Positions 42,708 to 54,124 are shown, counted from the first letter of the stretch. The stretch: DNA of 64,000 bases from Thermoplasmatota archaeon (GCA_036154155.1 JAYZLP010000020.1:13849-77848), one strand, 5' to 3'. Translations and numbers: made by a program. The notes: a model not told the origin generated them from the sequence alone.

Positions 42708-44201
42708 TTGGAAATGAGTAACAATGAGCGTACATTGCTCAAATTCATGTTATCCGAACCATCCAGAACTTGGACCTTGGACGAACTCCTTTCAGGTGCT
42801 GGCTGGGATGACCAGGTCCATGTCGCAGGCTCGGGAATGGCTCTTTCCGAGTTAGGCCTAGTAACCGTAAATGAAGAAATCGAGGCCTTTGTTTCCCTGG
42901 GCGAAGAGGGTGTGAACGCCCATCGCGAGGGCCTCCTGGAGTTCAGAATTTGGAACTGCCTCTCTTCTCTGCCTGAATCAGAGAGGACGATGGATAGGCT
43001 ATTCGAGGAGGGGTTTGAGCGCCACGAAGCAGGTCCCGGCATAGGCCTACTGAAATCCATGGGGCTTTCAATCGATTCTGGAAGGCTGGTCGTCGAGGAC
43101 GAGATATCAATTTCTAAGCAGATTTCTGTAAGATCAGAATTCATCTCTTCTTTGTCAGAAGGCCCCGTTGCCAAGTTAAAACTAGATGACGAAATGGTTA
43201 GCCATTTCCTGGGGAGGAAGGGATTAATTCTGATCAATGAGGAAACCTCCAGATCTTGGTCACTAACCGATGCCGGCTCATCGATTGAACAATCAGAACT
43301 TGAGCATGTTGAGATGATCGGTGAGGTAACGCCAGAGTTGCTCCAATCAGAAAACTGGAGGGGTGCGAAGTTCAAGCCCTTTGATGTAAATTCACCAGCA
43401 CCAATTCCCATGGGCGGGCGCCCCCATCCCATGCAGGCGTTGATAGAGAGGATAAGACAGGTCTTCTTGGAGATGGGGTTCTCGGAGATAGAGGGGGACT
43501 TTGTGCAGTCTGCAGGATGGAATATGGACGCTCTTTACATCCCGCAATCTCATCCAGCAAGGACCATGCAAGACACCTTCTACCTGTCTGAGCCCAGTCA
43601 AATCGATGTCGATGAACACTATCTCGATCTTTGGTCCAAGGTTCATGAGCACGGACACGACACAGGAAGTAAAGGCTGGGGCGGCTCCTTTGACAAGGAT
43701 GAGTCACGCAAATCATTACTGAGGACTCATACGACTGTAAACACTGTGAGGCACATCGCGGAGAATCCCGATGAACCCTCAAGGGTTTTTGGCATTGGAA
43801 GGGTTTTCCGTCAGGAGACGATCGATCGAACCCACCTTCCTGAATTCCACCAGATTGAGGGGATAATCCACGAGGAAGAAGCTAGCCTTCCGATGCTTAT
43901 CACAACTCTGAAGACGTTCTACTCCAAGATGGGCTACCCAGATGTCCGAGTACGACCCGCCTATTTCCCATACACGGAGCCTAGTGTGGAGGTGGACATC
44001 CTTTGGAGGGGCCAATGGCTTGAGCTAGGGGGGGCTGGAATATTCCGCCCAGAGGTCACGGAGCCGCTAGGCTCCAAGTGGCCCGTGTGTGCATGGGGGA
44101 TGGGGCTAGAGAGACTGGCAATGATTATACTAGACCTGGACGATATACGGCAGTTGTACCAACCAGATCTTGAGAGGTTGAGTCGGATGCCCATACTCTG
44201 A
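42708..44201 (+). CDS. pheS: Phenylalanyl-tRNA synthetase alpha subunit (archaeal/eukaryotic type)
   Basis: Class II core motifs FRPAYFPYTEPSVEVDI, GAGIFRPEV, AWGMGLERLAMI. Confidence 0.85.
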   Translation: MEMSNNERTLLKFMLSEPSRTWTLDELLSGAGWDDQVHVAGSGMALSELGLVTVNEEIEAFVSLGEEGVNAHREGLLEFRIWNCLSSLPESERTMDRLFEEGFERHEAGPGIGLLKSMGLSIDSGRLVVEDEISISKQISVRSEFISSLSEGPVAKLKLDDEMVSHFLGRKGLILINEETSRSWSLTDAGSSIEQSELEHVEMIGEVTPELLQSENWRGAKFKPFDVNSPAPIPMGGRPHPMQALIERIRQVFLEMGFSEIEGDFVQSAGWNMDALYIPQSHPARTMQDTFYLSEPSQIDVDEHYLDLWSKVHEHGHDTGSKGWGGSFDKDESRKSLLRTHTTVNTVRHIAENPDEPSRVFGIGRVFRQETIDRTHLPEFHQIEGIIHEEEASLPMLITTLKTFYSKMGYPDVRVRPAYFPYTEPSVEVDILWRGQWLELGGAGIFRPEVTEPLGSKWPVCAWGMGLERLAMIILDLDDIRQLYQPDLERLSRMPIL

Positions 44202-46146
44202 CCACGATTACTGCCATAATCAGGAATGACAGGATCTCTCCACCATTAGGCGGGATAATTTCAGAGAAGTCCGCTATTGAATTCGATACTTCGGACGCCT
44301 GACCCGGAGGCCCTCCTCCGCAACCATCGGGCGGAGGTCCAATCCCGGGGCCCCATGTTTCGCCGTGTCCAGAGCAGTCAGCGCCACCTCCTTCCCCATT
44401 CTCAGAGTAAACCTCCCCTCTGTAGCAGTTTATGAAATAGGGAAAACCAATCCCTCCTTCTCCATTCTCCCAGGTTGTGTGATAGTGGTAGATTCCATCT
44501 GGATAGTCCGGCGTTGGACCGTATTGGCCGTTACAAGAATCCAAGTCTCCGATCCCAGGAGAATATTCGTAGTCATCTATTCCGTTATACCCGGTCTCGC
44601 CTTCCTTGAGCCTGTATGAGGATTTCATTTCAGTTAACTCTCCTTCATCATCCCATCCAACGAAACCATAGATTGGGTATCCATCTAAGGCGAAGCCCAC
44701 TATTGGAGAGTGACTTGTGATTGACCTCGTTGACTCCAAGCTGTAATCAGCCCAGGTTTCTCCACTTTCTTCATCGGGGTGCCAGTGCAAACAGTTCGCA
44801 TCGGCGTGGTAGTGAAACTCCCCGCCTGGGCCTGAGTGGGCATGACAGATCCCTAGCCACACATGCTGCCTATCTTCCTCGTAGGCCCCCTCCTGTCCAG
44901 CTACTGCATCCCCACCGGGCCCATCCTCAGGCCCAAAAATAGGCACCCCATTCGCAGCGAAAGCAACTGCTCCCCTTTCCGGTGCCATGGTGCAACCATC
45001 GGTGGAGATAGATGGATCACACCCAGTCTGATTAGTGGGCTCGAGTGGTATCGTCCATACATGTTCCTGTGCGCTTGTGCAGCAGCCGGGTCCAGACTCA
45101 AGGTCGTGATTTGGAAGGCCATTGGCGGAAATTTGTATATGGGTCTCGTTGGTGGTAAAGCTGAGTTGGCAAACGTGATTGTCAAATTCACTAGTGTTGT
45201 AGTCGTCTATTCCTTCAACCTGTTCTGTGGAGTCACACAATAGCACATCTTCCCACCATTCCTCTGTTCCAGCCTCGATCTCCTCCGATTGTTCATCGTA
45301 CTCGCACGAACCGTCATCCTCCTCAGCGCCAGAGTCGTAGTTGTTGGCCTCTGGGTCTGTGCAACCAGTGACTGGCGCTGGCTCGTCGTACTCGCACGAA
45401 CCGTCATCCTCCTCAGCGCCAGAGTCGTAGTTGTTGGCCTCTGGGTCAGTACACCCTTGAGTTGGTTCTGCTTCAGTTTCCAGAACAGTAATGGTGACAA
45501 TTTTCTGACTTGATGTTTCAGTCCATATGCCACACGTAGCCTCTAGTGAGACCGTGGTGTTTTCCTGTAGGTTGGAAAGCTCCAGAATGTAGCCCCCATC
45601 TTCGTCTATTGGCAGCCCTAGGCTGGACTCTTCGATATCGGTGGTGCTCCACCTCAATTCACATGTCGAAGCGTCATCGTGGATTACAAGTCCGGAGATC
45701 GGAGCATCCCCTCCACGTTCAACATGGAACTCGCCCTGAGAAGTCGTAAGCTCCGTTTCACTCTCTTCAGGATAGTGAATAATGAAAGCTTTGGACCACG
45801 ACGTCTCTTGCCCCAGACTGTCTATTGCCACAACCTTCAGTGCATGGCTACCCACATCTAGTTCAGAGATGTCAATTGAGATCACGCCATACTGATCGGG
45901 TAAATCAGCGATTTCATCTCCGTCTAGTGTGACCAATAGTGAGAGGTCTGACATCTTCTCGTCGCTTATGGTGATTCTAACCGTGTCAACCGTGCCTATC
46001 AGTATCGTATCGGGAAGATCGGAGTCAACAGTGGGCGCGCGATTAAGTCCCTCGTCTTCAACGCCGAAGAAAAGGATGCCCGCCATCACACTGGTAATCA
46101 TGAGCCCAGCCAGCATCAATGACCTCGCGGCCCCTCCATCTTCCAT
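44125..46146 (-). CDS. Secreted YHYH-domain protein with Ig-like N-terminal region, tandem Cys-containing 30-aa repeats and C-terminal hydrophobic anchor
   Basis: Signal anchor. Repeats TQGCTDPEANNYDSGAEEDDGSCEYDE x2. C-terminal GEFHYHADANCLHWHP ... YHYHTTWENG motifs. The 3' end overlaps the pheS 3' end by 77 nt. Confidence 0.6.
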   Translation of the reverse strand: MEDGGAARSLMLAGLMITSVMAGILFFGVEDEGLNRAPTVDSDLPDTILIGTVDTVRITISDEKMSDLSLLVTLDGDEIADLPDQYGVISIDISELDVGSHALKVVAIDSLGQETSWSKAFIIHYPEESETELTTSQGEFHVERGGDAPISGLVIHDDASTCELRWSTTDIEESSLGLPIDEDGGYILELSNLQENTTVSLEATCGIWTETSSQKIVTITVLETEAEPTQGCTDPEANNYDSGAEEDDGSCEYDEPAPVTGCTDPEANNYDSGAEEDDGSCEYDEQSEEIEAGTEEWWEDVLLCDSTEQVEGIDDYNTSEFDNHVCQLSFTTNETHIQISANGLPNHDLESGPGCCTSAQEHVWTIPLEPTNQTGCDPSISTDGCTMAPERGAVAFAANGVPIFGPEDGPGGDAVAGQEGAYEEDRQHVWLGICHAHSGPGGEFHYHADANCLHWHPDEESGETWADYSLESTRSITSHSPIVGFALDGYPIYGFVGWDDEGELTEMKSSYRLKEGETGYNGIDDYEYSPGIGDLDSCNGQYGPTPDYPDGIYHYHTTWENGEGGIGFPYFINCYRGEVYSENGEGGGADCSGHGETWGPGIGPPPDGCGGGPPGQASEVSNSIADFSEIIPPNGGEILSFLIMAVIVVRVWASDSTSQDLVGTTAVYRPGLV
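45296..45447. repeat. Perfect 62-nt identity within a 90-bp tandem direct repeat (2 copies) inside the YHYH gene
   Basis: tcgtactcgcacgaaccgtcatcctcctcagcgccagagtcgtagttgttggcctctgggtc occurs at 45296-45357 and again at 45386-45447. Confidence 0.85.
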
Positions 46147-46221: not shown

Positions 46222-47289
46222 TCACTCCTCAGAAAGAGAGACAATGTCCAGAAGGAACTCCGAGGGGTCCCAGTTGATGCCAGAATAAGCTACTCTTTTC
46301 CTCATCTGCTTGTCAATAATGAAAGTGGTCGTTGAGTGCCCTACCTCATACTGGCCAAGTGATTCGCCATGGGGGTCCGTGGAGCCCTCTGCCGAACTAT
46401 CCCCCGAGCCCTCTATTACGCAGGACAGCCAATCTCCATCCGGTCGTTCGTAGCCTTCGTCACACATGCAGTGGGCATTGGAACCTGAGCCCATAATCCA
46501 ACCGTGGTTATTGCAATCAGAGCCCGGGGGCATCACACTCAGGTTCGCATTGCTGGCCACCCATGCCAAATGGGTATCAGATGTCATTTCAATCGAATCA
46601 AGTCCACCGGGGTATTCCACCCAGGTTTCGTTAGTTATGTCCCAGGAATGAAGGTCCCAATCCCAGGTTTCGTTAGACTCCCAGCCTCCAATTTCCCCGC
46701 TCGAGAAGTTGTAACTAGTATTTGCTTCCACTAATGCCCCCTCGATATATTCGGTACCGTTCATTCCCGATCCCGTAGTGTCTTGCACCAAGGTTGAATT
46801 GTCAGGGAAAAGCACAACCAATCTGTTGAGGCTGTCTTCCGGGGGCTCACTGGCTGCTATGTGCTCGTTGTCCACAATCACATTCCACGATCTGTAAATT
46901 CCCTGAAGTTCAGAAACCGGGCCAGTCAAGTGAGGCCAGCCATATCCCCTCTCCTCGGTCCATTCGGATAAGTGATCGATTGTGTCCCTCGCCGGGTCGA
47001 TGGTTACCGAGACAATCACCACTTCATCGGAATGCCCCCCAAGATTCTCATTGACGTAGTCTAGATTAGACGAAATCACCAAACAAACATCGGGGCAATA
47101 AGTGTAAACAAAGGCTACCACAATCACCTTTCCCTGGTTATCGGAGAGTCTGAACACGTCCCCGTTCTGATCGAATAGGGCGAAATCAGGAGCATCTGGA
47201 GGGTCCTTGTATTCAATCCCAAGAATCTCAATTGACTCGTTTGAGTCTCCTAAGCACCCTGGGGCTAGGATGGACAATGTGATTAGCAA
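46222..47289 (-). CDS. senC: SCO1/SenC-family copper chaperone (thioredoxin fold) with large Cys/His-rich insertion, lipoprotein-like signal
   Basis: FVYTYCPDVCLV (CxxxC), HLTGP. The fold closes with FIIDKQMRKRVAY..; insertion CNNHGWIMGSGSNAHCMCDEGY. Confidence 0.7.
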   Translation of the reverse strand: MLITLSILAPGCLGDSNESIEILGIEYKDPPDAPDFALFDQNGDVFRLSDNQGKVIVVAFVYTYCPDVCLVISSNLDYVNENLGGHSDEVVIVSVTIDPARDTIDHLSEWTEERGYGWPHLTGPVSELQGIYRSWNVIVDNEHIAASEPPEDSLNRLVVLFPDNSTLVQDTTGSGMNGTEYIEGALVEANTSYNFSSGEIGGWESNETWDWDLHSWDITNETWVEYPGGLDSIEMTSDTHLAWVASNANLSVMPPGSDCNNHGWIMGSGSNAHCMCDEGYERPDGDWLSCVIEGSGDSSAEGSTDPHGESLGQYEVGHSTTTFIIDKQMRKRVAYSGINWDPSEFLLDIVSLSEE

Positions 47290-47318: not shown

Positions 47319-48068
47319 CTACTCATCAATTAGTAGCATAACGTCCTCTAATGCCAACTCAACATTCCAGTCCATGTCTCCCCACCAGACCCTCTGGTTC
47401 ATCTGCTTGTCCACAATGATGGTACCAGTCGTGTGGTCCACCCAATATTCATGGCTCCCGACGTGCTTAACCGAAACATCCCCATCATCCCCTTGCTGGG
47501 TCTCTAGTCCACATCCGTGGTCATCTACTTGCTCTCCTTCGGGTGTTTCGACACAAGTGTCAAATCCATCTGCAACACCATCTCCATCTGTATCGGTGTC
47601 GTACGCAGTAAGGCCCACATCAAACTCCAACCAAACCTCCTCTAGATCGCTCAAATTACCCGTTAGGTGTGGCCACTCAAGGCCCCTTTGCTCCGAGTAA
47701 TCTGCCAATATTGTGTGGTTGTCTGTCCATGGGTCGACGGTAATACTGAGAATCTCAACAGTTTCTCCGTATTCCTCACCCAGCAGCATCTGCAAGTAGT
47801 CAAGATTAGCACTGACTATCGGGCAAATGTCAGGGCATCGAGTGAAAAGGAATGCAATCACAACGACCTTGCCCTCGTACTGCGAGAATGAGAAGTACTC
47901 CCCATTCTGATCGATTAGGAGAAAGTCTGAAACTGGAACCGGCGGGTTGATGTCCTCCCCATAGAAAACATCAGAGTCTTCGTTCCCGAGGCATCCTGGG
48001 AGGGCGATCATTAGTACGGCACAATACGCCCAAAACCTACTCATCTGACTCCCCCTTCTTGCGTGCAA
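47319..48068 (-). CDS. senC: SCO1/SenC-family copper chaperone paralog with Asp-rich (DTDTDGDGVADGFD) insertion
   Basis: FLFTRCPDICPIV (CxxxC), HLTGN, IIVDKQMNQRVWW. Confidence 0.7.
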   Translation of the reverse strand: MHARRGSQMSRFWAYCAVLMIALPGCLGNEDSDVFYGEDINPPVPVSDFLLIDQNGEYFSFSQYEGKVVVIAFLFTRCPDICPIVSANLDYLQMLLGEEYGETVEILSITVDPWTDNHTILADYSEQRGLEWPHLTGNLSDLEEVWLEFDVGLTAYDTDTDGDGVADGFDTCVETPEGEQVDDHGCGLETQQGDDGDVSVKHVGSHEYWVDHTTGTIIVDKQMNQRVWWGDMDWNVELALEDVMLLIDE

Positions 48069-48561
48069 TAATTACTATTGCTAGTCCCAAGAGAATCAGT
48101 GATAGAGGGGAGAAATCAGAATCATTGCCGGCCGCTGCATCGTCTTGGTCATTGTTGAATGAGTAGCTCCCTGGGGCCACATTTTCAGTGTGGTTGTCTA
48201 GTAATATACTCAGGCTAAGTGTTTTCCAAATAGTGCCATTCGAGAAAATCTGAATTTCATAGTCTCCGGATGTCCAATTTATCGGGTCCAGCCAAACTCT
48301 GCACTCGTCATCCGTGCTTGTAGAAGATGGCCCTGCCGTGCAATCAATCTCGTATACTCCATCCGCCCCTATGTCCAACGTTATGACTCTCTCGAAGTCA
48401 ACCACATTGTAGAAAATCAATGTGTCATTCTGCAGTACCTGTGCTGATTCTGGCTGCAAACTCTCTCCTCTCATGACGAAGGCGAATGTGTTGGCCCCAT
48501 GAGCGGACACGGTTGGAGCGATCAACATCACAATCGCCAATGAGACAAGTATCCTTCTCAT
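48037..48561 (-). CDS. Small secreted protein, predicted mature N-terminal His, C-terminal TM anchor (putative CopC-like metal-binding protein)
   Basis: Signal MRRILVSLAIVMLIAPTVSA then HGANTF...; beta-rich; C-terminal LSLILLGLAIVIIARKKGESDE. Confidence 0.5.
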   Translation of the reverse strand: MRRILVSLAIVMLIAPTVSAHGANTFAFVMRGESLQPESAQVLQNDTLIFYNVVDFERVITLDIGADGVYEIDCTAGPSSTSTDDECRVWLDPINWTSGDYEIQIFSNGTIWKTLSLSILLDNHTENVAPGSYSFNNDQDDAAAGNDSDFSPLSLILLGLAIVIIARKKGESDE

Positions 48562-50519
48562 TCGTCACTAGCCTCCGCTGACCAAAGCGGAGGGTAGTTG
48601 TATCGAGGGTCAAAATCCTCATCGAACTGCACAACATAGATGCCGCTCACCATCTCTGAAATGAATACAAATCCCCTCGGATCATACTGCAGACCCCAGT
48701 CGAATGGAATCATGCATGAAGCCCAACAATCCGCCATATCGTATCCTAGTGTGTTAGTTGGGTCTTCAATCCACGTAGGTCCGGCTGGAAGGTAGTAACC
48801 AAGGGTGTGCGTTGGAGCTAGCTCCTCAATGCATTTGAACCCGCATTCGGGATTTGGGGACCCGCCAGTCCACACTATCTCTTCCCAAATTTTCCCGTGG
48901 TCAGTCAACCAGTTTCCAGCATGGTAGTGAGTCCAATAGACGTGTCCATTGACTCCTGTATCGCCATTGTGCGGGCTGAAAATGTATCCTCCGGGGATAT
49001 AGTGCTGCGGGTGTTTGGAGCCGTTGGCCAAGGTCCCCTCCCCCGGCAGTCTCCATTTGGATACGAGGAATGGCATTGTGGGGTCAGTAGTATCGATTGT
49101 CCACAGGAATCCCGTATGGCCCGGGTTGCTGCCATATTCGGGAGCAATAATGGTGTAGTGGCGCCAGTTCCCCCCGTAAGTCGCGTCTTCCGGTCCAGTG
49201 CCACATTCCGATGGCCACTTGGACTGGGGCACGTACTCACTAATTCCATTGCAGACCAAGTGGTCGTATGGAACTGCGTAGTGTATGTTGTCGTTGCCCT
49301 GCTCAGCATCTAGCCATTCTTCGGGAGTCATATTGGCATGACCTCCTCCGTCGGGGCCATACCATCCTGAGTCATCAGTAGGGCACCCCAGCCATCTGCC
49401 AACTTCTGGCGGCCAGGAGACTCCAAGTGGATCAGCTACCGAGGGAGGCTCACTGACGTCCACTATTCGAAGACCAGCTCCCCAATAAGAGGCCACAAGC
49501 AGCCGTTGCTTTGTGATAGGGTGAACGAAGTAAACGTGATCGTGATTGAATATCGACCCGCCGCAAGTGGTGTAAGGCTCGGGCGTGTATCCGCCCCACC
49601 TGAGTATTTCCCTGCTGGAATTATCGCCAGTGATCCAAGAGTCGAAACCATTAGGCACGTAGAATACCTGAGTCCCTTTGTAGAATGTTCCGCTACTGCC
49701 TTCAACCATTTCCGGATATGGGTCTGCGCCGAAAAGGAACAGGCTGCATTCTTCATAGGGGTCAAAGGCACCATCCCAGTCGCAATAAACCGCTAGGTCT
49801 TGATTGTGGAATCCGGCTGGCGGGTTGTTCCACTCAGCTACCTTCACAGGACGAGTTTTGTCTCTTACATCAATAACATCGAGCCTGTTAGTTCCACTGT
49901 TTGCATCATCGTCATTAGGTATCGGGTCCAGTTCGCTGTTCGTCAACTCATGGTTCACAAGGACCCAGTTGTTGTCCTTTGTTACCTTTATGTCAATCAT
50001 TCTGGCAACTTCTGCGTAATAGGTGGATAGCAAAATTATGTTATTGGGCTCACTGATATCGAGAATCTCGAATTGGTTGTAGCTAGAAACGTACGCATAG
50101 CAGCCACCAGTTCCATCGCCGTATATCTCGCAGTCCTCATGGAAGTTGCCTTCGATAGCTATCTCTGAGTTGTCCCCCGGTGTCGGTCCGACATTCTTGA
50201 ATTCCTCATCACAAGGCCTACCGGCAGTATCGTCAAGTTCCGCCGGCGGCTTAACATTGCCATCGCAATTCAGATTGTGGTAGTCGATAAGAACCGCATT
50301 CTCAGTCCATAGCCGGTGGGAGAATAAATCATTGTGAGAGTGATTTCCGTCCTCAATCTCCGTCACCGGATCTATCCAGCCAGAGTCCCCTCCTTCATTT
50401 CCACCTGAATCATCCAATATCGACAAGCATCCAGACAGTGGAGCTAGAACCATCAATCCGACCATTACCAAGCACGGACTAACCCGCATGCCCCGACGCG
50501 CGCGACCAACGCCTATCAA
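48558..50519 (-). CDS. LVIVD-repeat beta-propeller lipoprotein
   Basis: Lipobox LAPLSGC; repeats LVASYWGAGLRIVDVSEPPS etc. Confidence 0.65.
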   Translation of the reverse strand: MIGVGRARRGMRVSPCLVMVGLMVLAPLSGCLSILDDSGGNEGGDSGWIDPVTEIEDGNHSHNDLFSHRLWTENAVLIDYHNLNCDGNVKPPAELDDTAGRPCDEEFKNVGPTPGDNSEIAIEGNFHEDCEIYGDGTGGCYAYVSSYNQFEILDISEPNNIILLSTYYAEVARMIDIKVTKDNNWVLVNHELTNSELDPIPNDDDANSGTNRLDVIDVRDKTRPVKVAEWNNPPAGFHNQDLAVYCDWDGAFDPYEECSLFLFGADPYPEMVEGSSGTFYKGTQVFYVPNGFDSWITGDNSSREILRWGGYTPEPYTTCGGSIFNHDHVYFVHPITKQRLLVASYWGAGLRIVDVSEPPSVADPLGVSWPPEVGRWLGCPTDDSGWYGPDGGGHANMTPEEWLDAEQGNDNIHYAVPYDHLVCNGISEYVPQSKWPSECGTGPEDATYGGNWRHYTIIAPEYGSNPGHTGFLWTIDTTDPTMPFLVSKWRLPGEGTLANGSKHPQHYIPGGYIFSPHNGDTGVNGHVYWTHYHAGNWLTDHGKIWEEIVWTGGSPNPECGFKCIEELAPTHTLGYYLPAGPTWIEDPTNTLGYDMADCWASCMIPFDWGLQYDPRGFVFISEMVSGIYVVQFDEDFDPRYNYPPLWSAEASDE

Positions 50520-50554: not shown

Positions 50555-52300
50555 TCAGAACGTCGAAACTGGCCCATAGGGCTTGTCAATGTCCAATTGA
50601 ACGATGTATAGGCCACTAGTGATACAGGACAGGTATGTGTAACCTTCATGATATTCGGCAGCCCATAGGAAAGGAGTCCAACCGAAGTCATAGAACGCAC
50701 TATCCAAGGGAGTCCCATCAGCACCATGAGGCAGGTGGAAGCCAACCGTGGAGTCCATGTGAACGGCCGTTTTGTTCTCGTCTGAGAGTCCAGCAACCAT
50801 GAGTGTCTCGATATCTACTATCCATAGTCCAGCGTGGTAGCTAGACAAGTATATCCTGCCGTCCCAAGCACCACCGTGGCTATTGTCTGGAAGTCCTGGT
50901 AGACCAGTCTGGAAAATCTGAGTATCTGCGTTATGGGGGCTGAAAAGTAACCACTCTTCCCCGTCCGGTATGTGGTGGTCCCAAGCAAAGGGAATTTCCC
51001 ACCCATGGATCAATTCGGGTTTGAATCTGAGATTTCCATTTACCATTTCATATCCGGTTGTATCTAGAAGGTAGCCCATCCCAGTTCCTACGGTGGTGCT
51101 CAATACTTCTGTGGCGATAATGGTGAGGTGACGCTTACCGACCGGGTATCCAAGGTGACTAGCATCCACCATGTCATCAATCGGCTCTGCGTAGTGGATG
51201 TAAGATGCCCTCCCTCCGTTTTCATTGCTGGTACATCCGCAGTCTATCTCTCCATCACCATCGAAGTCTTCGAACTCCATCCACTGCCCAACCTCTGGTG
51301 CCCTCCAAAGGCAACCAGCCTGGGAACCTCCAGAAGCTCTACACAATGAGCCGTGCCAGAGGTATTCTGCAAGATCCTTTCCTGGATGGGGCACATCCGA
51401 AACGTCGAAGATCCTGAGTCCCGCTTCCCAATAAGCTCCGTAGACATAGGTCCTGGCAAAACGTGGATCATTCGAGTCCTCGCCTGGCCACGTTTGCACC
51501 GTCATATCGTGGATGTAGATCCATCCCCCAAGAGTAGACTCCCACGAAACTTCAGCCTCTCCAAGCTTCACAATCCTAGGCAGATCTCCATAAGCAGCGA
51601 AATTCAGATGTGCAATTGTAATGCCGCCGCATGCATCGCCCTGCCCTACATCGCATGATTCGTAGTCCGGATTAGCGACAAAGATGTACCATTCGTTGTC
51701 GATCATGTGAGTGTAAAGGTTGTGTGGGCCACTCGGGTGGTCAAAGTCGTACCATGAATCCACCCAGCTCGGATTAGACTTGTCCGTGACATCCACTAGT
51801 GTCACTGTGACCTGAGCTGGGTCCTCCCAAGATCCAACATTGGGATCTGCTGCCCCGGGGTCAACAAGCTGATTCTGCACGATTACATATTCCCTAGCAT
51901 TGTATTCCAGATATTTGACATCCAAGACCTGTGTGTTCGGGTCGTAGTAAACCCCAGTAACTGTTGTATTGTATGGATCAGTCACATCGACGATATGCAT
52001 TTCTGACCATCCTGCAATGTATGCATATGTTTTCCCATCAGGGGAGTCTGCAACTTGGACCTCGGCATTACCCGGGGCTGTAAGTGGATTGTAGCTAACT
52101 GGCAATATATTATCCGTGTAAAGAATATGCTGACTAGCGTTTCTATGATCATGCCCCTCTTCCTGGATCAGTGGGTCCTCCATTCCTTCGACAATCGTAG
52201 CACTATCTTCGGTTTCCTCTATCAGCATAATCGACGCCACAACTGCCGCCAAAACACAACCTGCAAAGGCCAGTGCCAGAACTATCCTCCCGGACTCCAC
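50555..52300 (-). CDS. LVIVD-repeat beta-propeller protein (paralog)
   Basis: Signal anchor; IAGWSEMHIVDVTDP, GAYWEAGLRIFDVSDVPHP, SYHAGLWIVDIETL. Confidence 0.65.
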   Translation of the reverse strand: MESGRIVLALAFAGCVLAAVVASIMLIEETEDSATIVEGMEDPLIQEEGHDHRNASQHILYTDNILPVSYNPLTAPGNAEVQVADSPDGKTYAYIAGWSEMHIVDVTDPYNTTVTGVYYDPNTQVLDVKYLEYNAREYVIVQNQLVDPGAADPNVGSWEDPAQVTVTLVDVTDKSNPSWVDSWYDFDHPSGPHNLYTHMIDNEWYIFVANPDYESCDVGQGDACGGITIAHLNFAAYGDLPRIVKLGEAEVSWESTLGGWIYIHDMTVQTWPGEDSNDPRFARTYVYGAYWEAGLRIFDVSDVPHPGKDLAEYLWHGSLCRASGGSQAGCLWRAPEVGQWMEFEDFDGDGEIDCGCTSNENGGRASYIHYAEPIDDMVDASHLGYPVGKRHLTIIATEVLSTTVGTGMGYLLDTTGYEMVNGNLRFKPELIHGWEIPFAWDHHIPDGEEWLLFSPHNADTQIFQTGLPGLPDNSHGGAWDGRIYLSSYHAGLWIVDIETLMVAGLSDENKTAVHMDSTVGFHLPHGADGTPLDSAFYDFGWTPFLWAAEYHEGYTYLSCITSGLYIVQLDIDKPYGPVSTF

Positions 52301-52354: not shown

Positions 52355-52945
52355 ATGAGGGCATCCGAGGTAGTGTTAGCTTCCCTCATCGTAATACTGC
52401 TGGCAACTCCTGTTACAGCTCACGAGCCGAAGGAATATACAATGCTGTTGAAGGAAGAGGGAGTGACTCCAAGTGGGGTTCAATATGGCATACTGGTTGC
52501 TACCGACTACTTGTTCTTCTACAATGTAGATAGCAGGGAAAACACTTCCCACAGGATTCTGATTGACGCCGATTCCGATGGGATTTTCAATGGTGCGGAT
52601 GATATTTCCACAGCGTGGCTTTATCCTTCCTGCGAGTTAAACGAGACCGGCCAAAGGATCGACCCAGATTGCCAGGTCACTGAATTGGTTCTCTTGGACC
52701 CCTCCAACGGGCTAATCCCCGGCAATATCTCAATGATGCACCAGATATTGCACAACGGAACAACGCATGACTCAGTTTTCGTGGTTTCATTCTCTAATGA
52801 CGACCATTCCACACAACCCGTCTCAAACGACGAATCGGAGCAGGAAATTGAGAATGACTCCTCTAGTCAGATTCTGAAGTCAGTCCTTCTACTATCTCTG
52901 GTAGGGATGGCCGTATTGTTGCCTAAGCTACTATCCGATGGCTAG
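52355..52945 (+). CDS. Small secreted protein, predicted mature N-terminal His, C-terminal TM anchor
   Basis: MRASEVVLASLIVILLATPVTA then HEPKEY...; C-terminal ILKSVLLLSLVGMAVLLPKLLSDG. Start trimmed because the upstream part of the ORF overlaps the LVIVD gene. Confidence 0.5.
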   Translation: MRASEVVLASLIVILLATPVTAHEPKEYTMLLKEEGVTPSGVQYGILVATDYLFFYNVDSRENTSHRILIDADSDGIFNGADDISTAWLYPSCELNETGQRIDPDCQVTELVLLDPSNGLIPGNISMMHQILHNGTTHDSVFVVSFSNDDHSTQPVSNDESEQEIENDSSSQILKSVLLLSLVGMAVLLPKLLSDG

Positions 52946-53003
52946 TGAAACACACTGGTTCAATGGGTGCCCTCAAGAACCCATGACCTCCCCGGATATT
53001 CAG

Positions 53004-53080
53004 GGGCGCTTAGCTCAGCTTGGAAGAGCGCCTGGTTTGCAACCAGGCGGCCGGGGGTTCAAATCCCCCAGCGTCCACCA
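53004..53080 (+). tRNA. tRNA-Ala (anticodon TGC), CCA encoded
   Basis: gggcgct-ta-gctc-agcttggaa-gagc-g-cctgg-ttTGCaa-ccagg-cggcc-ggggg-ttcaaat-ccccc-agcgtcc-a-cca, G3:U70 pair present. Confidence 0.85.
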
Positions 53081-53098
53081 TTATTTTCTAAATCGGGA

Positions 53099-54124
53099 CT
53101 ATTGGTTCTCTCTGATTTCCAGCATCTGATTGAGAATCTTGAGAAGGCCTCTGAGAGTTACTTCGCTGATCCCAGCAACCTTGCAGACGTCGCTCTGGGT
53201 CCTAGGGGAGCTACTTTCTTGGGATGATTTGTAGAGGAGGACACCCGCAATCCCCGAGGGCTTCTTTCCTTGCCATGAAAGGTCATCTTTCACCAAATCC
53301 CATTTCTCTCTCACGTTCCCAAGTACAACAGGGGGCAAGCCGAGGTCAGAGTGGAACTTCTCAAAGTACTCTTCCGGACCAGTAATGTGATGCGCGCCTA
53401 GGGTTCTTGCTACTAGCCTAATGGTCCTCTTGAGCTCTTTGACTTCAACATCCTTCGTCATGTCAAAGGCCTCCGCAACCTCTTCTATTTTACGAGGGAT
53501 CTCCGCCTCCCTGGCAGCAACATATACGCAGGCGGCAGAAACTCCTCGAATACTCCTTCCAGTTACCAATCCCCTTTCCACAGCATGCCTGTAAAGTCCC
53601 GCGGCCTGTTGCTCAATCTGAGGGGGCAGGTCCCCTCTGTCCCTGATGAACTGCATGGCCCTGGACAGGTTCCTGCTACGGCTATCCCGCGTTTTGCTTC
53701 TCTGGTCAATTCGTTGCCTCCTCCTCCAGTCTCGAAGTGCCTTGCCAGACATCCCATGCCTCTTTGCCGAACCCGAGGTTAGGTCGGATCGCCTGATTTC
53801 AGTCGATAGCCCCTTGTCAGAAAGTGTGAGAGTAGTTGGAGCGCCAACCCTGCTTCTATCGTCCCCTCCCGAATGGTTGGTCCACTCTGCGCCAGGGTCG
53901 ATCATATTCTCAGCAGCAACGTATCCGCAGTCCGAACATGACGTCTCCCCTCTGATGTCATCATGGTCCCATGAGTTCGAGCCGCAGACCTTGCAAGGCC
54001 CGGTAACTTCCTCAGTCCCTCTGCTCCTAGAAGGTCGCCTCGATGGAACAATGGAACTCCTTCTAGCAGTTCTGCTAGAGGGATCCATTTTCTTTCCGGC
54101 TTGCTTCGCAGTGTCCCTTTCCAT
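53099..54124 (-). CDS. tfb: Transcription initiation factor IIB (TFB) with ~40-aa basic N-terminal extension
   Basis: Zn ribbon CKVCGS..CSDCGY, then two cyclin-like repeats. Confidence 0.85.
   Translation of the reverse strand: MERDTAKQAGKKMDPSSRTARRSSIVPSRRPSRSRGTEEVTGPCKVCGSNSWDHDDIRGETSCSDCGYVAAENMIDPGAEWTNHSGGDDRSRVGAPTTLTLSDKGLSTEIRRSDLTSGSAKRHGMSGKALRDWRRRQRIDQRSKTRDSRSRNLSRAMQFIRDRGDLPPQIEQQAAGLYRHAVERGLVTGRSIRGVSAACVYVAAREAEIPRKIEEVAEAFDMTKDVEVKELKRTIRLVARTLGAHHITGPEEYFEKFHSDLGLPPVVLGNVREKWDLVKDDLSWQGKKPSGIAGVLLYKSSQESSSPRTQSDVCKVAGISEVTLRGLLKILNQMLEIRENQ

Follow-up and report, generated by a model that had tools for sequence, protein, structure and literature searches.

A predicted membrane-tethered cupredoxin-fold protein with a candidate N-terminal-histidine metal site in Marine Group II archaea

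The DNA analyzed here (the window) is a 64,000-nt stretch from a Thermoplasmatota archaeon (GCA_036154155.1, JAYZLP010000020.1:13849-77848). The gene in question lies on its minus strand at 48037-48561, in a cluster with genes for two LVIVD propellers, two SCO1/SenC copper chaperones and a YHYH-domain protein. It encodes a small protein that is very likely exported, membrane-tethered and of cupredoxin fold, and four of its residues, the predicted N-terminal histidine among them, probably form a metal site. The features of the protein and of a second copy in the window are as follows.

48037-48561, minus strand: gene for the small exported protein (group A), a single open reading frame (ORF) with an ATG start, 174 amino acids (aa)
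48502-48561, minus strand: signal peptide, residues 1-20 (MRR / ILVSLAIVMLIAP / TVSA), from a hydrophobic window and the family motif (A/V)-x-A↓H; predicted cut after Ala20
48499-48501, minus strand: codon of His21 (CAT), predicted residue 1 of the mature protein and proposed bidentate ligand (amine and imidazole); His in 266 of 275 relatives
48424-48426, minus strand: codon of Asp46, which precedes strand 3 in a turn and is proposed as a carboxylate ligand or as a residue of the second sphere; Asp in 271 of 286
48301-48342, minus strand: Cys74 (48340-48342) and Cys87 (48301-48303), a probable disulfide and not a copper ligand pair; Cys in 285 and 286 of 289, respectively
48190-48198, minus strand: Asp122-Asn-His124, a DxH motif right after the last strand, proposed second brace His plus carboxylate; Asp in 275 and His in 277 of 289, middle residue variable
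48184-48501, minus strand: cupredoxin-fold ectodomain, residues 21-126, ~105 aa, eight to nine strands, from an AlphaFold2 (AF2) model of the mature domain and Foldseek
48112-48183, minus strand: acidic low-confidence linker, residues 127-150, poorly conserved; predicted local distance difference test (pLDDT) score below 50 for residues 131-161
48037-48111, minus strand: C-terminal transmembrane helix (~151-169), charged tail RKKGESDE and stop codon, from hydrophobic 17-mers; helix at 153-168 in the model
52355-52945, plus strand: paralog B, 196 aa, with a signal peptide ending VTA↓HEPKEY, a DDH motif and, at the C-terminus, a transmembrane helix; 27% identity (E 3e-10) and the same fold signature; transcribed divergently from the cluster

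Topology, fold and family of the small protein

The ORF, first called in an earlier reading of the DNA (the initial annotation), was confirmed as a 174-aa frame on the minus strand. Its translation runs MRRILVSLAIVMLIAPTVSA, then HGANTF...DNHTE..., and closes with LSLILLGLAIVIIARKKGESDE; the codons of His21, Asp46, the two cysteines and the DxH motif were read in the raw sequence at the positions listed above. The tight overlaps with both neighbors reported at that stage are real, but the two ends had been reversed. It is the 5′ end of the small gene (48561) that overlaps the stop of the upstream propeller gene LVIVD1, by 4 nt (ATGA, 48558-48561), and the 3′ end that runs into the start of the downstream chaperone gene SCO1b, the overlap being 8 nt if SCO1b begins at ATG 48044 and 32 nt if it begins at TTG 48068. 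The second copy reported with the first is likewise present, as paralog B.

Kyte-Doolittle 17-mers exceed 1.6 solely at residues 1-19 and ~151-169, and the C-terminal hydrophobic segment is found in 252 of 267 relatives. Ala occupies position -1 in 260 of these 267 sequences, and Ala or Val position -3 in 250, which fits the -3/-1 rule of signal peptidase I; cleavage at Ala20↓His21 is predicted from this family A-x-A↓H motif. The terminal hydrophobic segments and the family-wide cleavage motif bear out the exported, C-terminally anchored topology that had been proposed.

In the full-length AF2 model a confident core (residues 24-125, block pLDDT ~80-95) is flanked by the signal peptide, the disordered linker and the terminal helix; the core pLDDT of the two models is ~90, and the model of the mature domain reached a pLDDT of 83.7 and a predicted template modeling (TM) score (pTM) of 0.75, with eight to nine strands. 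When either model was searched against the PDB with Foldseek, all 50 best matches were classical cupredoxins, including plastocyanin, the Bacillus anthracis Cupredoxin_1 structure 4hcf, CuA domains, small laccase domains, NirK and the cupredoxin domain of EfeO (top matches at E 5e-5 to 3e-4 over ~100-115 aligned columns, TM-scores up to 0.68-0.73 normalized to the target). The initial annotation had expected a fold related to known metal-binding β-sandwiches, and a cupredoxin is what the models and matches point to, but no CopC, lytic polysaccharide monooxygenase (LPMO) or YcnI structure is among the 50 best matches. A lenient Pfam scan of 47 family members gave 11 weak, sub-threshold matches to PF13473 (Cupredoxin_1; best E 0.0079), and none for the protein of the window itself. 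The protein lacks the type-1 ligand set (His...Cys-Xn-His-Xn-Met), with strands 7 and 8 joined by a two-residue turn (N108-G109), and a type-1 blue-copper role was rejected because the ligands are missing. The CuA ligand set is also absent from the ectodomain. The sole cysteines are Cys74 on strand 5 (E72-76 of the model) and Cys87 on strand 6 (E87-90).

A word-indexed search returned 151 homologs (E<=0.01), all unnamed or hypothetical and all from Poseidoniales or Thalassarchaeaceae, and a HMMER profile run exhaustively against 1.84 billion cluster representatives matched only 134 clusters (E<=1e-3). Scanning 185,579 species genomes yielded 52 loci, every one in Marine Group II (Poseidoniales), and the closest genome match to the small protein was UBA438 (95% identity). 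Neither small protein matched a Pfam or NCBIfam model above threshold, with no Pfam match at E<=0.1, and the family profile had no relevant match among PDB sequences. The protein belongs to a narrow, uncharacterized archaeal family with two main paralog groups, A and B, and some remoter members.

Paralog B has 94 homologs. Like most of the remote members, it keeps a histidine (His66, in 'ENxTHRI') at the position of the first copper ligand of classical cupredoxins, and a DxDxDG calcium-type loop; group A has a three-residue deletion at the position of His66, with Arg58 nearby. Retention of His66 makes a second site possible in group B, which may, judging by sequence, carry one. The group-B entries P0330-P0343 start at an internal Met ('MLLK...') without signal peptide or N-terminal His, and these starts are most likely gene-calling truncations and not real isoforms.

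Conservation and covariation of the candidate metal site

Conservation was counted in a MAFFT alignment of 289 family members. Ala is found at position -1 in 266 sequences, and the N-terminal His that the initial annotation took as the defining feature is indeed conserved, occurring at +1 in 266 of the 275 non-gap sequences, well beyond chance, in orthologs and paralogs alike, and without exception in the sub-alignments A1 and A2. His21, Asp46, Asp122 and His124 are outranked in conservation by the Cys pair and Pro37 (283/289) alone. Of the domain's five N-x-S/T sequons, two (N-x-T) have Asp46 and His124, respectively, as their middle residue. In both cases the sequon Asn is less well kept than the residue that follows it (N45 in 170 sequences vs D46 in 271; N123 in 121 vs H124 in 277), and the possibility that the motifs are mere glycosylation sequons was rejected, since the middle residues are far better conserved than the Asn.

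Seven sequences carry Asp instead of His at +1 (P0146, P0148, P0153, P0214, P0218, P0238 and P0245). Asp46 is lost in all seven and Asp122 in most of them, while His124 is kept. Identity among the variants is only 22-56%, and each of them, with the exception of the P0148/P0153 pair, is closest to a sequence of the His-Asp-Asp-His (HDDH) type, indicating that the change from His to Asp arose at least five times. Among representatives at 50% identity, Fisher tests associated His21 with Asp46 (p = 7e-6) and with Asp122 (p = 0.017), and the control comparisons of His21 with Cys74, Pro37 and His124 all gave p = 1. The joint loss of His21, Asp46 and Asp122, with the control positions unaffected, indicates that these residues behave as one functional unit. 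Wherever the N-terminal His is replaced, the residue at +1 is Asp, and these variants (seen at loci L060, 8001-8606, L064 and L065, among others) have in many cases acquired His-rich stretches (HEH, HSH, HHH, GHSHDDD) near the former DxH or beyond it. Their sequences suggest a site that was remodeled rather than dead.

In plastocyanin, one rim of the barrel, at the far side from the blue-copper site, holds the N-terminus together with the strand 2-3 turn and the point where strand 8 ends. With this topology carried over to the AF2 model and its order of strands, the candidate ligands would come to lie on one rim of the barrel, at the opposite pole to the blue-copper site. His21, Asp46 and Asp122-x-His124 would then cluster in space, and they probably form a metal site.

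Gene neighborhood

The other genes of the cluster, in the order of their transcription, are listed below.

50555-52300, minus strand: LVIVD propeller 2 (LVIVD2), 581 aa, PF08309; opens the minus-strand cluster and is divergent from paralog B
48558-50519, minus strand: LVIVD propeller 1 (LVIVD1), 653 aa, PF08309 (E 4.4e-8), with a lipobox-like LSGC; its stop and the start of the small gene overlap in ATGA
47319-48068, minus strand: SCO1/SenC copper chaperone b (SCO1b), PF02630 (E 1.5e-24), with a CPDIC motif and the lipobox LPGC; begins at ATG 48044 or TTG 48068
46222-47289, minus strand: SCO1/SenC copper chaperone a (SCO1a), PF02630 (E 7.4e-25), CPDVC motif
44125-46146, minus strand: YHYH-domain protein, 673 aa, PF14240 (E 2e-33), last gene of the cluster

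The gene order small B / LVIVD2 / LVIVD1 / small A / SCO1b / SCO1a / YHYH is kept in ~50 species. Wherever a His-type group-A locus has sequence beyond the small gene, SCO1b is the next gene downstream. In the readable loci of the group-A variants that have lost the site (P0153, P0148 and P0146) there is no downstream SCO1, and one of these loci (L060) is also without YHYH, whereas P0136, their closest His-type relative, has SCO1 5 nt downstream. The absence of SCO1 together with the lost site, and its presence in the His-type relative, ties the His site to the copper chaperones. Elsewhere in the family, the remote members P0198 (locus L058) and P0166, P0206 and P0218 (loci L059, L067 and L066, respectively, in a Frag1/NUDIX neighborhood) each adjoin an LVIVD propeller of ~592 aa. 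An LVIVD propeller thus adjoins family members in all three genomic contexts and is their constant partner. The copper-chaperone cluster described in the initial annotation stands as far as the tight coupling to the SCO1 genes is concerned, but the partner that is constant across lineages had been missed.

LVIVD1 and LVIVD2 are ~31% identical and share 10 invariant histidines (alignment A3). In LVIVD1 numbering these are H60, H62 and H68, which form an HxHx5H motif after the signal/lipobox, and H238, H326, H413, H454, H506, H517 and H533; from the sequences, the set looks like a multi-histidine metal center. Across species the propellers are 75-95% conserved, vs 50-60% for the small protein. 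Searches of PDB sequences with LVIVD1, the YHYH protein and the LVIVD profile gave no relevant relative, and nothing relevant was found in the literature on LVIVD and copper or on YHYH and copper.

Several further features of the neighborhood were noted. Lipobox-like motifs close the signal peptides of SCO1b (LPGC), SCO1a (APGC) and LVIVD1 (LSGC), and both small proteins have C-terminal transmembrane anchors instead. SCO1a and SCO1b have long C-terminal extensions past the SCO1 domain, that of SCO1b including an Asp-rich repeat resembling thrombospondin type 3. Ahead of its YHYH domain, the YHYH protein carries a peptide (GCTDPEANNYDSGAEEDDGSCEYDE) twice in near-identical form, a repeat that Tandem Repeats Finder did not report at the DNA level; in related contigs the product of the YHYH gene ranges in length from 372 to 872 aa, with an FSH1 hydrolase domain fused to it in some cases. 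Two related Poseidoniales contigs (L001, 1-1268, and L003, 1551-4541) carry, a few kb upstream of the cluster, a transporter with FecCD, ABC and periplasmic-binding-protein components, and also a CREG/PNPOx-DUF2470 (heme-utilization-like) gene. A tRNA-Ala (TGC) gene lies directly downstream of paralog B (53004-53080, plus strand), and the ORFs that run across it (52938-53129 and 52967-53227) are artifacts. A scan of the cluster for bacterial-type promoters and terminators gave counts equal to those of shuffled sequences, with models that are not applicable to archaea.

Known systems, proposed function and alternatives

The Cu(II) site of CopC class C0-1 consists of an N-terminal His and the Asp and His of a DxH motif (PMC12154828). 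The small protein has the same signature, H1 plus DxH, near the C-terminal end of the barrel, and the CopC- or LPMO-like site suggested in the initial annotation holds to that extent; the protein itself is neither a member of CopC nor of LPMO fold. CopC membership was rejected, as none of the 47 members matched PF04234 at E<=10 and hhalign gave a probability of 0.5% for profile A2 against P. syringae CopC (reference matched to 1M42). Compared with the CopC examples considered (M. trichosporium 5ICU, YcnJ's CopC domain and P. syringae 1M42), the DxH of the small protein follows the last strand, whereas that of CopC precedes it, and the family differs in being membrane-tethered, in its Cys pair and DxDxDG loop, and in having no CopD neighbor.

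The whole architecture is shared with YcnI (DUF1775) of B. subtilis (7ME6/7MEK), which has a signal peptide, an N-terminal His27, a cupredoxin fold and a C-terminal transmembrane segment, and which is encoded with copper-trafficking genes (PMC8424229). In YcnI, Cu(II) is held by the amine and imidazole of the His plus the carboxylate of Glu50, 23 residues past the His (PMC8424229); the spacing of His21 and Asp46 is 25. Membership of this family was also rejected (no PF07987 match for the protein of the window or the 47 members; hhalign probability 0.1% against a YcnI reference matched to 7ME6). The two differ in that YcnI has a mono-His brace with Glu and Trp, whereas the small-protein family has a bis-His signature with no equivalent Trp identified beside the motif. 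Their partners are also different, being CopC/CopD in bacteria for YcnI, and LVIVD propellers and SCO1 in archaea for the small protein.

Classical cupredoxins (plastocyanin 1IUZ, 4HCF, halocyanin and CuA) are the best structural matches and share a '...ND(T/S)LxFxN...' habit and the weak PF13473 similarity, but the candidate ligands of the small protein would lie at the opposite pole, and where cupredoxins have their ligand loop, strands 7 and 8 are linked by the N-G turn. An LPMO or X325 fold was rejected on the absence of any LPMO from the 50 best Foldseek PDB matches of either model and on the size of the domain (~105 aa). A place in PCuAC (PF04314), a family with a Met/His Cu(I) motif, was rejected as well, since there was no Pfam match and no conserved Met in the ectodomain. 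X325/Bim1 and PCuAC of the PmoF type are non-catalytic histidine-brace proteins for copper acquisition, X325 being tethered at its C-terminus by a glycosylphosphatidylinositol anchor. They have LPMO-type sandwich or PCuAC folds, are unrelated in sequence and are eukaryotic or methanotroph-specific. The small protein is best described as representing a new cupredoxin-fold family with a convergent histidine-brace signature.

On balance we favor, with a probability of roughly 0.55, the reading that the protein is a tethered histidine-brace Cu(II) carrier that works with SCO1 and the propellers, where copper and the direction of its transfer are what we infer. After cleavage, His21 would become residue 1, and its α-amine and imidazole, with His124, Asp122 and Asp46, would form a histidine-brace type-2 Cu(II) site at the other barrel pole from the classical blue-copper site. 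Swinging above the membrane on its flexible acidic linker, the ectodomain could capture Cu(II) from seawater or ligand pools, and the co-transcribed SCO1 lipoproteins, the His-rich LVIVD propeller next to it, or both, would then receive the metal. Copper is favored as the metal because of the gene context. Halocyanin and plastocyanin genes are highly transcribed in Thalassarchaeaceae (PMC9723583), making copper demand real and a copper supply route plausible.

Several observations weigh against a Cu(II) carrier of this kind. Cleavage in these uncultured archaea is a motif-based prediction, and the DxH region was modeled with moderate confidence (mean pLDDT 63 for mature residues 101-110). A simple all-or-none site predicts the loss of all four residues together, and His124 is retained where the other three are lost. 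Synteny within Thalassarchaeaceae extends to housekeeping genes (PheRS, FolD and TFB), so that conservation of the cluster reflects shared ancestry in part, and the remote members beside an LVIVD propeller show no SCO1 in the available sequence, so SCO1 is not a universal partner. The identity of the metal is put in question by N-terminal-His proteins of other families, found by signal-strapping, which bind Ni or Co besides Cu (PMC12537917). A site for Ni, Zn, Co or Fe that serves uptake, in the manner of Ni binders or of the EfeO domain in iron uptake, would also be in keeping with the EfeO cupredoxin domain among the structural matches and with the FecCD/ABC transporter a few kb away in related contigs. 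By the Irving-Williams series, however, a site of amine, two imidazoles and a carboxylate favors Cu(II). Two SCO1/SenC genes are translationally coupled downstream and are lost together with the site in the group-A variants, and H1 plus DxH is specifically the Cu(II) set of CopC (PMC12154828), leaving a non-copper metal distinctly unlikely in our view.

A doubtful but conceivable role for the small protein is that of a dedicated subunit or maturation factor that docks on the LVIVD propeller and loads or completes its multi-histidine center, with SCO1 as an accessory in one lineage. A propeller is the neighbor in all contexts examined, those of the Thalassarchaeaceae cluster, of L058 and of the Frag1/NUDIX loci L059, L066 and L067; each locus pairs two small proteins with two propellers, and the propellers have their 10 invariant His and their higher conservation. 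LVIVD1 is nevertheless unchanged where the group-A site is lost, and a subunit role overlaps with the Cu(II)-carrier reading and does not exclude it. It is unlikely, if conceivable, that the small protein and the propeller make up an unrecognized archaeal extracytoplasmic copper enzyme system, in which the propeller histidines would hold a multinuclear copper center, the small protein would be its loader or redox partner, and SCO1 and YHYH would be accessory. Such a center would in principle resemble CuZ in N2O reductase or the tricopper site in thiocyanate dehydrogenase. The loss of the type-1 ligands, the five sequons, two of them around Asp46 and His124, and the DxDxDG loop, which suggests structural Ca2+, could be taken to indicate a degenerate, metal-free cupredoxin, i.e. 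a structural or adhesive surface protein whose motifs stem from signal-peptidase preference, sequons or folding. We consider this very unlikely, as D46 and H124 outlast their sequon Asn, signal peptidase needs no His at +1, and His21, Asp46 and Asp122 are lost jointly when the control positions are not. The histidine-brace signature might also be read as that of a catalytic, LPMO-like oxidase, or the protein as an electron-transfer cupredoxin feeding the propeller enzyme; cupredoxins and propellers do form redox pairs, as in amicyanin and methylamine dehydrogenase or the two domains of N2O reductase. Both possibilities appear exceedingly improbable given the lack of LPMOs among the 50 top structural matches, the small domain, the absence of a Cys-His-Met or CuA set with an N-G turn between strands 7 and 8, and the fact that type-2 brace sites are poor electron-transfer centers.

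To our knowledge, the known histidine-brace sites (LPMOs, pMMO, CopC, PmoF and YcnI) are all bacterial or eukaryotic. If the Cu(II)-carrier reading is true, the ligand set of CopC has been placed, in an archaeal family, on the scaffold of a classical cupredoxin and at the other pole from the blue-copper site, which would be a clear case of convergent fold reuse. The Marine Group II archaea are abundant, uncultured and heavily reliant on copper proteins, and the family could show how copper is acquired at the very low free copper of seawater. Were the small protein and propeller instead to constitute a copper enzyme system, this would give the LVIVD repeats a first function and add a new cuproenzyme to very abundant ocean archaea. 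The strict pairing with His-rich LVIVD propellers offers a first testable lead on the function of the LVIVD repeat family and the YHYH domain.

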